DNA of 64,000 nt from an uncultured Christensenella sp. Its GTDB lineage: Bacteria > Bacillota > Clostridia > Christensenellales > UBA3700. Each line of letters begins with the position of its first letter. The stretch's first letter is position 1. Made by a program: the position numbers and the translations under genes. Under the pieces are notes generated by a model. The model did not search any database. It saw only the letters and a list, made by a program, of their open reading frames with translations, and was not told the DNA's origin. The stretch spans positions 58,714 through 122,713 of the forward strand of contig CAJUEA010000001.1 of assembly GCA_910584975.1 (NCBI GenBank), written 5' to 3'. This document shows, one piece after another, positions 4,561 to 6,711 of the stretch.

Positions 4561-4673
4561 ATCCAATACAGTGATGCCCGACTAAATAGGGTATTTTGGT
4601 TGCTTAAACCAAATAAGCTGAAAAAGGGTGATGCCCCACCAATTAAAGAGTGGCGAGTATTAGGATACATTGA
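4561..4673 (+). ncRNA. Putative antitoxin-like leader RNA of cassette A (two diverged ~57-nt units)
   Basis: Lies between the promoter and an intrinsic terminator. GTGATGCCC boxes at 4571 and 4628. Hairpins TTTGGTT/AACCAAA (4595-4613) and CCAC/GTGG (4636-4653). The in-frame ORF across it lacks an RBS and has a promoter inside it. Confidence 0.45.
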
Positions 4674-4707
4674 TGCAGAAGCAAGTTACGCTTCTGCATT
4701 ATTTTTT
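4674..4707 (+). terminator. Intrinsic terminator between the leader RNA and toxin A
   Basis: 9-bp stem TGCAGAAGC/GCTTCTGCA with a 7-nt loop, followed by TTATTTTTT. It ends 4 nt before the RBS (GGAGA, 4711-4715) and 16 nt before the ATG of toxin A. Confidence 0.75.
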
Positions 4708-4722
4708 AATGGAGAACATAAA

Positions 4723-5568
4723 ATGAATAAAGAAAAATTAGAAATTGTATATTTAAAAAAATCTTATCAAGAGTATATTAAAAAATATTGTAAAGACGAC
4801 ATGAAGTTTGTATCGTCTGATAATAAGCAAAGGCCATTTGTAGGTGTTGTATTGCGTGGTATAAATGGATCTAACTATTTCGCACCTCTTACTAATGATG
4901 CAAGGACAACGGCATTTAATGAAGTTGATGTACATAATATTGGCAAAGGTAAATATGGGGCTTTAAATTTTAAGCAGATGTTGCCTGTTCCAGAAGATGC
5001 TCTTACTCATTTTGATATAAATTCTTTGCCTGAATGTAGCTATAAACGATTTCTGGTGAGCCAAGCAAGACACATTCAGCGAGAAAATAAAATCATAACA
5101 ACAAAAGCTGCAGAAGTTTATGTTCAGTGCTTATATAATAAATCAAACAGCTTATATGAACATTGTAATGATTTTTTATTATTGGAAGATAAGGCCAAAG
5201 ATTGGAAAGAATATCTACAACAGAAAAGCAAAAAAGAAGAGATCAAGATTGATGAGACGAAGAAAGCAATAAAATCGCAAAAACAAGAAACCCCAAAAAC
5301 AGCTAATAGTCAAGCTTATAGAGAAACAAAAGCATATAAAACTGTTGTTGAGAAATACGGACAACAAAAAGCAGATAAACTTGTAAATGATTTGCTTAAA
5401 ATTGAAATATCGAAGGCACAAGAAAAAGAAAAAATTACAACAAAAGACGGTAAAAACAATACAATATCTGTACCAAAAAATAAATTGCAAGGTAAAACTA
5501 CTGTTACAACGACTGTTGTAAAAACCACTGTTAAAGCACAACCTAAGACATCAGGTAGAGCAAAGTAA
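4723..5568 (+). CDS. ToxN/AbiQ-family type III toxin (endoribonuclease) with ~110-aa Lys/Thr-rich C-terminal extension
   Basis: RBS GGAGA sits 7 nt upstream of ATG 4723. Family-typical blocks: RPFVGVVLRGINGSNYFAPLT, GALNFKQMLPVP, SYKRFLVSQARHIQRENKIITTKAAEVY, CNDFLLLEDK. 281 aa, compared with ~170-180 aa for ToxN/AbiQ. Confidence 0.8.
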   Translation: MNKEKLEIVYLKKSYQEYIKKYCKDDMKFVSSDNKQRPFVGVVLRGINGSNYFAPLTNDARTTAFNEVDVHNIGKGKYGALNFKQMLPVPEDALTHFDINSLPECSYKRFLVSQARHIQRENKIITTKAAEVYVQCLYNKSNSLYEHCNDFLLLEDKAKDWKEYLQQKSKKEEIKIDETKKAIKSQKQETPKTANSQAYRETKAYKTVVEKYGQQKADKLVNDLLKIEISKAQEKEKITTKDGKNNTISVPKNKLQGKTTVTTTVVKTTVKAQPKTSGRAK

Positions 5569-5599
5569 AGACAAAATATAAAGACAAATTGTCTTTACA
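5565..5599. promoter_or_regulatory. Element-specific motif site 2: GTAAAGACAAAAT, then the palindrome TAAAGACAA-a-TTGTCTTTA
   Basis: Overlaps the toxin A stop codon (5566-5568). Same sequence family as 3453-3488 and 6714-6817. Confidence 0.5.
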
Positions 5600-5637
5600 A
5601 TAAACATTCAAATAATATAAAAAATGTATTAATTATA

Positions 5638-5666
5638 TTGACAAATTATAATATTTTGAGTATAAT
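5638..5666 (+). promoter_or_regulatory. Sigma-A promoter of cassette B (TTGACA-17 nt-TATAAT)
   Basis: Consensus -35 at 5638-5643 and consensus -10 at 5661-5666. Confidence 0.8.
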
Positions 5667-5696
5667 AATATTGAAGATGAGCTGACATCTATAAAA

Positions 5697-5812
5697 CCTA
5701 GTGATAGCACCACCATTGCAGTGGCAGCACGGCTGTATAGGCAGCCCAAACAAACCTATATCTAGCACCACTATTATAGTGGCAGCACGGCTGTATAGGC
5801 AGCCCAAACAAT
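5697..5812 (+). ncRNA. Tandem 2 x 58-nt RNA repeat (putative antitoxin RNA of cassette B)
   Basis: Units 5697-5754 and 5755-5812. The 48-nt core AGCACCAC..GTGGCAGCACGGCTGTATAGGCAGCCCAAACAA is identical between units except in one hairpin loop. Each unit has CCAC/GTGG and GGCTG/CAGCC hairpins. It lies downstream of the promoter and upstream of a terminator. Confidence 0.6.
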
Positions 5813-5823
5813 CAGAGATATTT

Positions 5824-5851
5824 AGGTGCATCAAAATTGGTGCACCTTTTA
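5824..5851 (+). terminator. Intrinsic terminator between the RNA repeats and protein B
   Basis: 7-bp stem AGGTGCA/TGCACCT with a 10-nt loop, then TTTTAT. The T-run is modest. Confidence 0.55.
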
Positions 5852-5868
5852 TCATTAGTGAGGTAACA

Positions 5869-6711
5869 ATGGAAAAAGATAAAATATTGGAACTACTTTA
5901 TATTAGTTGGGAAAGTTATCAAACAAAACTTATACCTAATTCATATTTATATCTATATGAAAAAAATGGTATTTTGAAATCAAAATTTGTAGCCGCTCGA
6001 GATTATAATTTTTTACATCTAAGTGGTATAAAAACTAATTTATCAGCAGAAATGTTTGCGAGAAAGTTAAGGAAAAAATCCTTAAAGCCTAAAGAATTTT
6101 ATTTGGAAAATAAAAGAAATATCAAAAGCAAATTATATAAGCTGCCATCTTTGCATGAAGTTATGGAACAACCATTAAAGATAGGTAAAAAATCTAATAC
6201 ACTTAAAAATGTTGACTACATAGTTGGAAGAAATCAAATGATTTTAGGCTTTTCTTGTGCTAACAATGGGAAAGGTTTTGATAATCCATCAACATTAATG
6301 AGCGGTATTTGGGAGACTATAGCCGCAGGAAAATTCTATGATATTTTGGTAGTTCTGAAGACGCCCAAGCAAGGTCAAAAGTTATTTGATAAAGTAACTT
6401 ATATTTCAGATAAATTTGATTATAGCAAATTGCCAATTAGTATAATCAATAAATGTGATCCAAAAGTTCTAGAACATTTGAAAAATGGTAAAATTTCAGT
6501 AGAAAATATAGCACGAGAGAAAAATGATTATGAACTTTTAAACAAATTACCAACTAAAGAGGAACTTCAAGAAACAAATGCATATAAAAAAGCTGAACTA
6601 AAATATGGCAAAAAGATTGCCGATAGTCTTGTAAAAAATATTATTAATGGAAGTAAGCACAAGAAAAAACAAAATTCAAATCAAAATGAAAAAAAAGGTC
6701 CGACTAAATAA
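5869..6711 (+). CDS. Putative toxin/effector of cassette B, N-terminal domain family unassigned, C-terminal tail shared with toxin A
   Basis: RBS GAGGT upstream of ATG 5869, 280 aa. No ToxN blocks are present. The motif NFLHLSGI is reminiscent of PBECR/barnase-EndoU-type nuclease domains, but this is unverified. The tail ETNAYKKAELKYGKKIADSLVKNII matches the toxin A tail. Confidence 0.55.
   Translation: MEKDKILELLYISWESYQTKLIPNSYLYLYEKNGILKSKFVAARDYNFLHLSGIKTNLSAEMFARKLRKKSLKPKEFYLENKRNIKSKLYKLPSLHEVMEQPLKIGKKSNTLKNVDYIVGRNQMILGFSCANNGKGFDNPSTLMSGIWETIAAGKFYDILVVLKTPKQGQKLFDKVTYISDKFDYSKLPISIINKCDPKVLEHLKNGKISVENIAREKNDYELLNKLPTKEELQETNAYKKAELKYGKKIADSLVKNIINGSKHKKKQNSNQNEKKGPTK

Follow-up and report, generated by a model that had tools for sequence, protein, structure and literature searches.

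A portable C-terminal tail on toxins with unrelated N-terminal domains in adjoining cassettes with type III toxin-antitoxin architecture

[quoted passage not shown] The element that carries them reads VirB4-like ATPase, ParA, RHH protein, cassettes, UPF0236 gene and then chromosome. The VirB4-like ATPase (PF19044 / DUF87 / AAA_10) is found two genes upstream in the window and in L001-L003 and L008-L015 of the related loci, which are Christensenellaceae/Clostridia elements; L004-L007 are too short to reveal it, L007 being a short contig that covers only the ParA end onward. The synteny of VirB4-like ATPase, ParA, RHH protein and toxins is kept in the independently recovered loci L008-L015, which amount to two sequence-distinct versions besides the window. 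Within the 64-kb window we found neither a coupling protein nor a relaxase. The criteria of Blower 2012 for type III systems include tandem repeats between promoter and terminator, here 2 x 58 nt in B and two diverged units in A, and an intrinsic terminator, which here separates the A leader from ORF A (4671-4701; a 12-bp stem and then a T run) and the B repeats from ORF B (5824-5847; a 10-bp stem, likewise with a T run after it). By architecture both cassettes would be classed as type III, with neutralisation by RNA as a prediction. Cassettes A and B are independent systems that lie side by side at the maintenance end of this T4SS-bearing element. An origin as diverged duplicates of one ancestor was considered and rejected because the N-terminal domains of the two toxins show no profile similarity (hhalign of ToxN_toxin against PBECR4, probability 0.15%).

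Cassette A opens with a promoter, TTGACT-17-TATACT (4526-4554; 10/12 matches in a consensus scan), that has a counterpart in the equivalent place in related loci. Its leader RNA consists of two diverged pseudoknot units inside a closing helix. The core of unit A1 (4569-4596) is an H-type pseudoknot with stems S1 AGU/ACU and S2 GCCC/GGGU, and that of A2 (4626-4657) has S1 GGUG/CACC and a weakened S2. Both are recognised in the 64-kb window by R1, a covariance model of six A-type units that was built partly from A1 and A2 themselves (34.8 bits, E 8.5e-7 for A1; 26.5 bits, E 1.4e-4 for A2), and the paired units of L007, L008 and L014 score on it like A1 and A2. Across the six units, a sample of three independent loci only, the pseudoknot is 95% paired while slid controls collapse, and S1 covaries at two pairs (AU<->GC and UA<->CG); A-type units fold as pseudoknots, as the antitoxin units of ToxIN/AbiQ systems do. 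The closing helix P1 joins 4560-4568 (5' strand, from the MFE pairing) to 4656-4665 (3' strand) in a duplex of -9.5 kcal/mol. Equivalents form in L007, L008 and L014, with L007 and L008 pairing different sequences at the same positions, and the helix covaries among loci; the block GTATTAGG, listed in the original prediction, belongs to its 3' strand. A2 is also the unit that the original prediction had compared with B1 of the other cassette. A1 and A2 have about their first 18 nt in common at a spacing of 57 nt, a repeat that TRF left undetected, and GAAAAAGG, between them, is a candidate RNA processing site. RNAalifold on MAFFT-aligned whole leaders misaligned the 3' ends and missed P1, and per-sequence folds with duplex energies were used instead. 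Rfam, searched at permissive E-values, returned no known RNA family in 4400-7000. A structured two-unit model is now available for a divergent ToxI-like RNA.

Downstream of this leader lies ORF A (4723-5568; 281 aa), in which Pfam, PADLOC, PDB and AF2 delineate a ToxN/AbiQ domain (residues 1-~165), a helical linker and a tail. The protein matches Pfam ToxN_toxin (PF13958; 2.7e-31), PADLOC AbiQ (9e-25) and PDB 4ATO (1.7e-11), and its AF2 model matches 4ATO, 2XD0, 7D8O and 4GLK with TM 0.76-0.80 (Foldseek against 4ATO: E 3e-9, TM 0.80), so that it belongs to the ToxN family by both sequence and fold. Cassette A is a ToxIN/AbiQ-family system: like Pectobacterium ToxIN, B. thuringiensis ToxIN and Lactococcus AbiQ-antiQ, it has a promoter, a repeated pseudoknot RNA, a terminator and the gene of a ToxN-fold endoribonuclease. 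It differs from these systems in a leader of just two, strongly diverged units held within a 5'/3' closing helix, in a unit spacing of 34-58 nt within its subfamily, and in a C-terminal extension of ~115 residues on the toxin that the ToxN homologues of 160-211 aa found in our analysis lack; a word-indexed protein search with A returned only four distant ToxN proteins, all tail-less. Within the extension, the tail motif RETKAYKTVVEKYGQQKADKLVNDLLKIEISK (residues 200-231; 5320-5415), located by BLASTP, profile matches and AF2 helices (203-212 and 214-236, pLDDT about 70-79), forms in the model a helical hairpin that comes after residues of low confidence (185-194). It is followed by a basic, probably disordered C-terminus (5416-5565), modelled at low confidence (pLDDT <50 for residues 234-281), with a net charge of +12 from the motif to the end.

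Cassette B starts from a promoter with 12/12 matches, TTGACA-17-TATAAT (5638-5666), and continues with the RNA units B1 (5694-5751) and B2 (5752-5809), a true tandem repeat of 58-nt units that are 88% identical; repeat and fold analysis gives B1 the hairpins CCAC/GUGG and GGCUG/CAGCC. ORF B (5869-6711; 280 aa) encodes a solo PBECR4 predicted RNase domain, a linker and a tail, the motif of which, QETNAYKKAELKYGKKIADSLVKNIINGSKHK (residues 234-265; 6568-6663), was located by BLASTP and profile matches. Residues 15-141 match Pfam PBECR4 (PF18813) at 7.7e-15 and 56.2 bits, passing the gathering threshold (cut-off 27); the single-sequence AF2 model of B has a pLDDT of 37. Weak tblastn matches link B to plasmid-borne solo PBECR4 proteins, and the tail is missing from the solo PBECR4 homologues of 203-223 aa that we found. 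A word-indexed protein search with B returned only B itself, and viral contigs and phages gave no match to it.

B has the architecture of the TenpIN and CptIN families of type III systems (Blower et al. 2012, PMC3401426), which typically have about 2 repeats of 45-57 nt ahead of a terminator and the toxin gene, whereas the toxin of B is a PBECR4 domain. An assignment to TenpIN was rejected: neither ORF of the TenpN reference plasmid NZ_CP056218.1 (K. pneumoniae) matches PBECR4 (hhalign probability 0.36%), the PBECR4 HMM has no match in 150/153 kb of Yersinia p153kb, which Blower lists as a tenpIN host, and neither TRF nor the PBECR4 HMM search gave a TenpN locus on that plasmid, the comparison being one with reference plasmids rather than with a curated TenpN profile. 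An assignment to CptIN was rejected too, CptN (PDB 4RMO) being matched by neither B nor the PBECR4 profile in a PDB sequence search, a separation by sequence alone and not by fold. Solo PBECR proteins occur on T4SS elements, and it has been proposed that they accompany the DNA into recipient cells (Iyer et al. 2017, PMC5512222). Toxin B resembles them in its N-terminal PBECR4 domain and its place on a T4SS element, and differs in that tandem RNA repeats and a terminator lie ahead of its gene, an arrangement that implies an RNA antitoxin and is likewise seen in front of the PBECR4 gene of Pediococcus pPC892-4. The literature searched gave no description of an RNA antitoxin for a solo PBECR. Judged from its sequence, the combination of solo PBECR4 and repeat RNA is a candidate for a new type III-like toxin family, which would be the fourth.

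The original prediction held that two proteins of about 280 aa combine differing N-terminal domains with a common C-terminal peptide motif and a basic tail, and in all of these points it is borne out. In a single BLASTP comparison, A192-225 and B226-259 align with 38% identity (E 7e-4), the Smith-Waterman score of the two tails is reached by 2/2000 shuffles, and an HMM of four ToxN-type tails, with B left out, finds the B tail at 25.2 bits and E 2.7e-6 among 3713 six-frame segments. The same HMM finds the tails of VapD toxins at E 1e-11 to 1e-13 and a 53-aa ORF at E 7.6e-12, with nothing unrelated below E 1 among these segments. The consensus, YKxTxxYKxxVEKYGxKxADKMxxDxxK, spans ~32 residues in two helices, and the net charge from the motif onward is +12 in A, +9 in B and +7 to +16 over all tails. 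Linker, helical motif and basic, probably disordered end form one module on A and B. This tail is conserved at the protein level: it is kept in the ToxN subfamily (P0008, P0009 and the L014 copy), and P0008 differs from the L014 copy by 7 synonymous codons and 1 non-synonymous one. In a search of 1.84 billion (1.84e9) proteins, a profile of two tail sequences recovered A and B, one fragment and two 281-aa proteins of the ToxN+tail type, all from this element family; since that profile missed the VapD tails, the search under-samples where the module occurs. Scans for the tail in viral contigs, JGI metagenomes and plasmids were empty, and a word-indexed protein search with the tail alignment gave no matches, the query probably being too short for the word index. 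No Pfam family covers the motif at E<=1, and the tail profile has no match among PDB chains at E<=10.

The third tail-bearing toxin, absent from the window and found in related elements, is a VapD homologue (PDB 9kan_A, 9.8e-14; NCBIfam VapD, ~1e-24) whose gene lies behind that of a VapW homologue (PDB 9kan_B, 7.3e-6), with no RNA repeats upstream. VapWD is a validated type II system in which VapW is the protein antitoxin (PMC11980593; PDB 9KAN); the VapD of these elements differs in that the tail motif and basic end, about 60 residues, are added after the VapD-aligned residues 7-112. Two or three same-tail toxins co-reside in one element, and a free-standing 53-aa tail ORF with a plausible ribosome-binding site lies at L007:392-553. 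The tail is a portable module, carried by ToxN, PBECR4 or VapD or standing alone, and the modular design first proposed, a common tail with interchangeable effector domains, extends beyond the two proteins from which it was drawn. The tail-bearing ToxN, PBECR4 and VapD each adjoin RNA repeats or a VapW homologue.

The presence of the tail on a toxin whose antitoxin is a protein makes the docking of an RNA antitoxin an unlikely function, and the tail is probably part neither of catalysis nor of RNA-antitoxin binding. Since it is independent of both antitoxin type and toxin fold, and has so far been met in one T4SS element family, we read it as a docking handle. We suggest, largely by analogy and at a probability of roughly one in three, that it is a common handle for an element-encoded partner, most plausibly a T4SS recruitment signal. 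The likeliest partner would be the coupling machinery of the element's T4SS, with the tail serving as a bipartite C-terminal recruitment signal of helical motif and basic end; nuclease toxins would be delivered to recipients or neighbouring cells, carriers of the element would be protected by the cognate RNA or protein antitoxin, and the RNA similarity of A and B would have no role. A T4SS translocation signal is a possible, and the best-fitting, analogy for the tail. XVIPCD domains are common to diverse T4SS toxins that adjoin immunity genes (PMC8740702). In both the XVIPCD (Xanthomonas/Stenotrophomonas) and the BID-plus-basic-tail signals (Bartonella Beps, relaxases), as here, a conserved C-terminal module is found on unrelated catalytic domains with an antidote adjacent and a T4SS in the region, and a folded motif with a basic tail after it gives a bipartite layout. 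The differences are that no sequence similarity to a described signal domain was detected (Pfam E<=1, PDB E<=10), the tail matching no Pfam family, that the tail has about 32 residues rather than about 120, and that the host is a Firmicute with RNAs among the antidotes. With no more than three or four sequence-distinct elements known, common descent may be enough to account for the association with a T4SS. Export would require that a toxin bound in an RNA-protein complex first be set free.

We know of no C-terminal effector-recruitment domain for the T4SSs of Firmicutes. A bolder proposal, again by analogy and one we regard as doubtful, is that the tail represents such a domain, hitherto unrecognised, in a Firmicute conjugative T4SS that exports nuclease toxins of three unrelated folds into recipients or neighbours, with repeat RNA as the immunity for two of them. 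If true, type III 'toxin-antitoxin' cassettes would be effector-immunity pairs and would provide the first case of a secreted toxin countered by RNA immunity. The toxins of toxin-antitoxin systems are commonly regarded as compact, single-domain proteins. Extensions have been noted, for example in TenpN (PMC12283969), yet without explanation. One short module on three unrelated nuclease toxins, whose antidotes are chemically of two sorts and which cluster at one corner of the element, is the kind of pattern that would mark a trafficking or regulatory tag. It raises, for conjugative elements of gut Firmicutes, the question of whether toxins are moved along with the DNA or several addiction modules are placed under one partner.

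Other functions of the tail have to be weighed against a docking handle for the T4SS. We consider it rather unlikely that the tail serves the toxins as a general aid to binding nucleic acids or ribosomes, with its basic helices raising substrate affinity or localising the proteins. Such a function would suit ToxN, PBECR4 and VapD, all known or predicted nucleases, as well as tails that are positively charged and probably disordered past the motif, but the shorter ToxN (160-211 aa) and solo PBECR4 (203-223 aa) homologues that we found lack the tail, and the conserved part is a specific 32-residue motif, more than a basic composition. The 1.84e9-protein search, moreover, recovered it in one element family only, and the SOS induction caused by VapW-associated VapD toxins suggests a substrate unlike that of ToxN (PMC11980593). 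At a similarly low probability, the tail could be a regulatory handle through which an element or host factor (a protease adaptor, a master inhibitor or activator, or the ParA/RHH partition complex) switches all of the toxins, with the 53-aa ORF as a decoy. The co-residence of two or three same-tail toxins in one element, their position directly downstream of ParA-RHH and the free tail ORF with its plausible ribosome-binding site all speak for this purely inferential scheme, whereas no candidate partner was identified and a search of the fetched loci found no other ORF with the motif or an obvious complement to it. The free tail-only ORF is at least as compatible with regulation or a decoy function as with a recruitment signal.

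The main idea of the original prediction, that the tail docks the repeat RNA antitoxin and that both cassettes carry a common RNA element, is very improbable and already largely refuted. RNA repeats are present in both window cassettes, and the sequence blocks quoted for A2 and B1 do exist: with lenient gap costs, A2 against B1 scores above 1000/1000 dinucleotide shuffles and 1685/1685 genomic 40-mers. With strict costs, however, the score is reached by 14/1000 shuffles for trimmed units and 50/1000 for full units. The score of A2 against B2 is reached by 14-38/1000, A1 against B1 or B2 is at chance level, and whole leader A against whole leader B is matched by 375/1000. In the shuffled-control check that had been proposed, the tails beat their controls, but among the RNAs only A2 against B1 did. 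The covariance model of six A-type units does not recover B1 or B2 in the 64-kb window, and the orthologous A-type units bear no resemblance to B (z 1.1-1.9). The GTGAT block is absent from B2, the CCAC..GTGG hairpin, among A-type copies, occurs only in the window copy of A2, and the A2 blocks are parts of the covarying pseudoknot stem and closing helix. The unit length of 57-58 nt, also put forward as a shared feature, is a coincidence, because the units of A-type relatives are spaced 34 or 58 nt apart. The shared RNA motif does not hold as a conserved family feature. Docking of RNA by the tail is contradicted by the tail-bearing VapD, which lies behind a VapW homologue with no upstream repeats, by the ToxN homologues of 160-211 aa that lack a tail, and by the AF2 model, which sets the tail beyond the low-confidence stretch after the ToxN domain.

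Hardly any weight can be given to the already unlikely reading of the tail similarity as a by-product, either of Lys-rich chance or of coding sequence hitch-hiking beside a conserved DNA site, the palindrome GTAAAGAC, that would serve cassette recombination: the A-B pairwise statistics alone are modest and the palindrome follows each tail-bearing gene, but an independent profile finds the B and VapD tails at E 1e-6 to 1e-13 with no false matches, close copies differ mostly at synonymous sites, tail types are only 42-60% identical in nucleotides, and the palindrome stands at tail-less boundaries as well. In the related loci it lies within about 15 nt after every tail-bearing gene, and it also precedes parA in the window (3455-3486), a boundary with no tail. 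Binding of the palindrome by the tail was rejected as a leading idea because identical sites occur at such tail-less boundaries; from their sequence and placement, an RHH operator or centromere would fit these sites better. Repeat analysis places three TAAAGAC half-sites, two direct and one inverted, after ORF A (5566-5598, no strand assigned). After ORF B, TRF finds 8.2 copies of the 13-nt unit AAAATGTAAAGAC at 96% matches (6710-6816, no strand assigned), an array that is an expansion of the palindrome half-site and has 8 or 9 copies in other assemblies.

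Our analysis resolves 4526-6830 into two cassettes lying head-to-tail on the + strand, each with a non-coding leader of ~150-200 nt between a strong sigma-70-type promoter (+ strand; 4526-4554 in cassette A and 5638-5666, scoring 12/12, in cassette B) and an intrinsic terminator (+ strand; 4671-4701 and 5824-5847, respectively), and each with a toxin gene that has its own ribosome-binding site, ORF A (4723-5568, +, 281 aa) and ORF B (5869-6711, +, 280 aa). Two independent RNA-controlled toxin cassettes are shown to be present; their kind, type III toxin-antitoxin, is already known, and one of the toxin families is probably new. 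Public gene predictions start both ORFs upstream (4546-5568 and 5701-6711) and run through the leaders and terminators, so that the type III architecture is hidden in protein databases, where the toxins measure 340 and 336 aa (P0001 and P0006). The start methionine used here for ORF A is that of its 281-aa homologues.

Residues 1-~165 of toxin A are a ToxN/AbiQ protein, matching Pfam ToxN_toxin (2.7e-31), PADLOC AbiQ (9e-25) and PDB 4ATO (1.7e-11); an AF2 model with seven sequences as input resembles 4ATO, 2XD0, 7D8O and AbiQ 4GLK (TM 0.76-0.80). Toxin A and the database protein P0009 are 45% identical across 249 aligned residues, C-terminal motif included. At residues ~55-62 the nearest relatives read PLTS, A reads PLTN and others PLSS; the clade of P0008 (with the ToxN copies of related loci L013-L014) has PLRIGEE or PLRVGEQ, and its nuclease may be altered or inactive.

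Toxin B matches Pfam PBECR4 (7.7e-15, 56 bits, cut-off 27). It has no sequence match in the PDB, CptN 4RMO included, and its profile does not resemble that of ToxN (probability 0.15% in hhalign). No PBECR4-matching ORF lies on NZ_CP056218.1, the TenpN reference plasmid (PMC12283969), and the PBECR4 HMM gave zero matches when run over 150 of the 153 kb of the Yersinia plasmid given by Blower et al. as a tenpIN host. As far as testable, B thus falls outside the type III toxin families of CptN, ToxN and TenpN. The nearest reachable relatives are solo PBECR4 proteins of Firmicute plasmids; on Pediococcus pentosaceus pPC892-4 (L018 1197-1360), 52-nt x 2.1 repeats and then a terminator precede such a gene, the two repeat copies differing by a G-C to A-U compensatory change. 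In this locus and in the window (5638-6711) alike, the solo PBECR4 gene comes after a 52-58-nt unit repeated about twice in tandem and a terminator. PBECR4 with its repeat RNA therefore looks like a further, candidate fourth, type III-like family distinct from ToxN, CptN and TenpN, of which the literature searched yielded no description. The two B leader units, B1 and B2, are a genuine repeat. In the Logan contigs L004 and L005, at ~2260 (equivalent to window 5720-5778), there is a single hybrid B unit each, as B1 and B2 are fused by a deletion of exactly 58 nt; this is either a collapse in assembly or a genuine variant with one repeat.

The two toxins share a C-terminal tail, a ~32-residue helical motif (A 200-231, B 234-265) with a basic end. 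The common peptide motif of the original prediction is real, and broader than first seen. BLASTP aligns the tails with 13/34 identities (E 7e-4, single comparison), and their Smith-Waterman score is equalled by 2/2000 shuffles. A two-sequence motif profile run against 1.84 billion representative proteins recovered, beyond A and B, three proteins only: P0008 and P0009, which are 281-aa ToxN+tail proteins, and a single fragment of the same type. The cleanest test is an HMM from four ToxN-type tails only, which among 3713 six-frame segments gave B's tail 25.2 bits (E 2.7e-6), VapD tails 41-48 bits and a 53-aa ORF 42.9 bits, with no further segment below E 1. Codons of close copies differ by 7 synonymous versus 1 non-synonymous changes, which shows that selection acts on the protein. 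Every tail is basic, with a net charge after the motif of +7 to +16 when toxin-borne and +3 in the free ORF. In the AF2 model of A, the motif forms two helices (203-212 and 214-236, pLDDT ~70-79), set off by a low-confidence stretch (185-194) from the ToxN domain with its long C-terminal helix; pLDDT is <50 across the C-terminal 48 residues. A terminal KGTVTTVTIxSSPxKGK segment is common to ToxN-type tails, loosely conserved in A and absent from B and VapD.

The loci of the recovered tail proteins and of three genome-scan matches (Christensenellaceae, Christensenella and Clostridia MAGs) have their genes in the same order as the window. The VirB4-like ATPase comes first, followed by ParA and a small RHH protein; next are the leader RNA and its ToxN+tail gene, then additional small genes, and UPF0236 closes the element. 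Two positions past ToxN, a gene in the related loci also has the motif (...YKQTSAYKSNVEKFGQKTADKMLAESIKNLTAQEK...), behind an N-terminal domain that is VapD (PDB 9kan_A 9.8e-14; NCBIfam VapD ~1e-24). The 108-aa gene ahead of it is a VapW homologue (9kan_B 7.3e-6), so the pair (L013 5326-6215; L014 5327-6220; L008 4908-5797), downstream of the ToxN cassette, matches VapWD, a validated type II system (PMC11980593). RNA repeats are absent upstream of the VapD gene. The free 53-aa ORF (L007 392-553), flanked by the RHH gene and the ToxN cassette, is essentially the tail motif alone, with a plausible ribosome-binding site. The C-terminal module is thereby shown to be portable among toxins of three folds and two kinds of antidote, in keeping with the predicted common tail on interchangeable effector domains. 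The UPF0236 gene (window 8460-9824) is a conserved element end, the same in L007, L009, L010 and L013-L015; from ~10000 on, the window has sugar-utilisation genes that look chromosomal.

The RNA half of the prediction, a common element in both leaders, proved to be no conserved feature. Compared with L007 and L008/L014, the A leader has two units, A1 and A2, each an H-type pseudoknot with a 3-bp stem S1 (AU-GC and UA-CG covariation) and a stem S2 (GCCC/GGGY); pairing reaches 95% of cells, against 21-50% in slid controls. A closing helix, in which the 5' end pairs with the segment right before the terminator, encloses both units, and its sequence differs per locus yet always pairs (UAUCCAAUAC/GUAUUAGGAUA, CCAAUCC/GGAUUGG, UACAAGUC/GACUUGUA). 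Unit spacing is 57, 58 or 34 nt among loci. From this fold we identify the blocks thought to be shared: GTGAT-GC-CCACCA corresponds to the S1/S2 part of unit 2, and GTATTAGG to the closing helix's 3' strand. What had been proposed as a common feature, the CCAC..GTGG hairpin, occurs on the A side in the window copy only, where it competes with S1; orthologues have AGGGC at that place.

A1 and A2 are far more diverged than B1 and B2. For the block similarity, A2 versus B1 is exceptional when gap costs are lenient (z 4.3; equalled by 0/1000 shuffles and 0/1685 genomic 40-mers); when they are strict, its score is equalled by 14/1000 shuffles (trimmed units) and 50/1000 (full units). A2 versus B2 was weaker (14-38/1000 shuffles), A1 versus B1 or B2 was at chance level, and unit 2 orthologues of L007 and L008 against B gave z 1.1-1.9. 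A covariance model of six A-type units, A1 and A2 among its sources, found A1 (34.8 bits) and A2 (26.5 bits) and no B unit on the + strand of the window. The B units are also unlike the repeats at the PBECR4 locus of Pediococcus. A shared motif is therefore rejected; we conclude that the resemblance is limited to one unit pair in one element, and that it reflects either a chance match picked out post hoc or a local exchange between the two adjacent cassettes.

The tail is a new module with a candidate secretion role. We infer that it is dispensable for catalysis, since 160-211-aa ToxN and 203-223-aa solo PBECR4 homologues go without it, and probably also for binding the RNA antitoxin, since the VapWD-like pair carries it and it also stands alone as a free ORF; the same occurrences speak against the RNA-docking module once proposed. 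The tail fits the profile of a trafficking or docking tag in several ways: it is C-terminal; it is bipartite, a helical motif plus a basic end; one element has it on several toxins, each beside its own antidote; and it is so far confined to a T4SS element family. Effectors of Bartonella carry a BID-plus-basic-tail signal, one of the closest precedents. Another is the XVIPCD of antibacterial T4SS effectors (PMC8740702). On these features and precedents, we rank first a T4SS recruitment signal, at a probability of roughly 0.35. Ranked below it, and unlikely, are a regulatory handle shared by the tail-bearing proteins and, equally so, an accessory that binds nucleic acid or the ribosome.

TAAAGAC half-sites, in most cases arranged into the palindrome GTAAAGAC-N5-GTCTTTAC, stand at almost every intergenic boundary from the VirB4-like gene to UPF0236 (window 3455-3486, 5566-5598 and 6710-6816, the parA upstream region included; L007 346-365 and 1615-1680; L008 3776-3795, 4852-4871 and 5803-5822) and are not specific to tail-bearing genes. 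Past ORF B (6710-6816) they form a 13-nt direct array of 8 copies, or 9, depending on the assembly. Plasmids of the inc18 group share this delta-omega-toxin layout, and by analogy with their omega sites the TAAAGAC sites probably serve the 64-aa RHH protein beside ParA as operator or centromere. A further repeat, AAAAACTACGG x 2.7 at 6840-6869, abuts the -35 box of the promoter that follows (6870-6898) and may be a second operator type.
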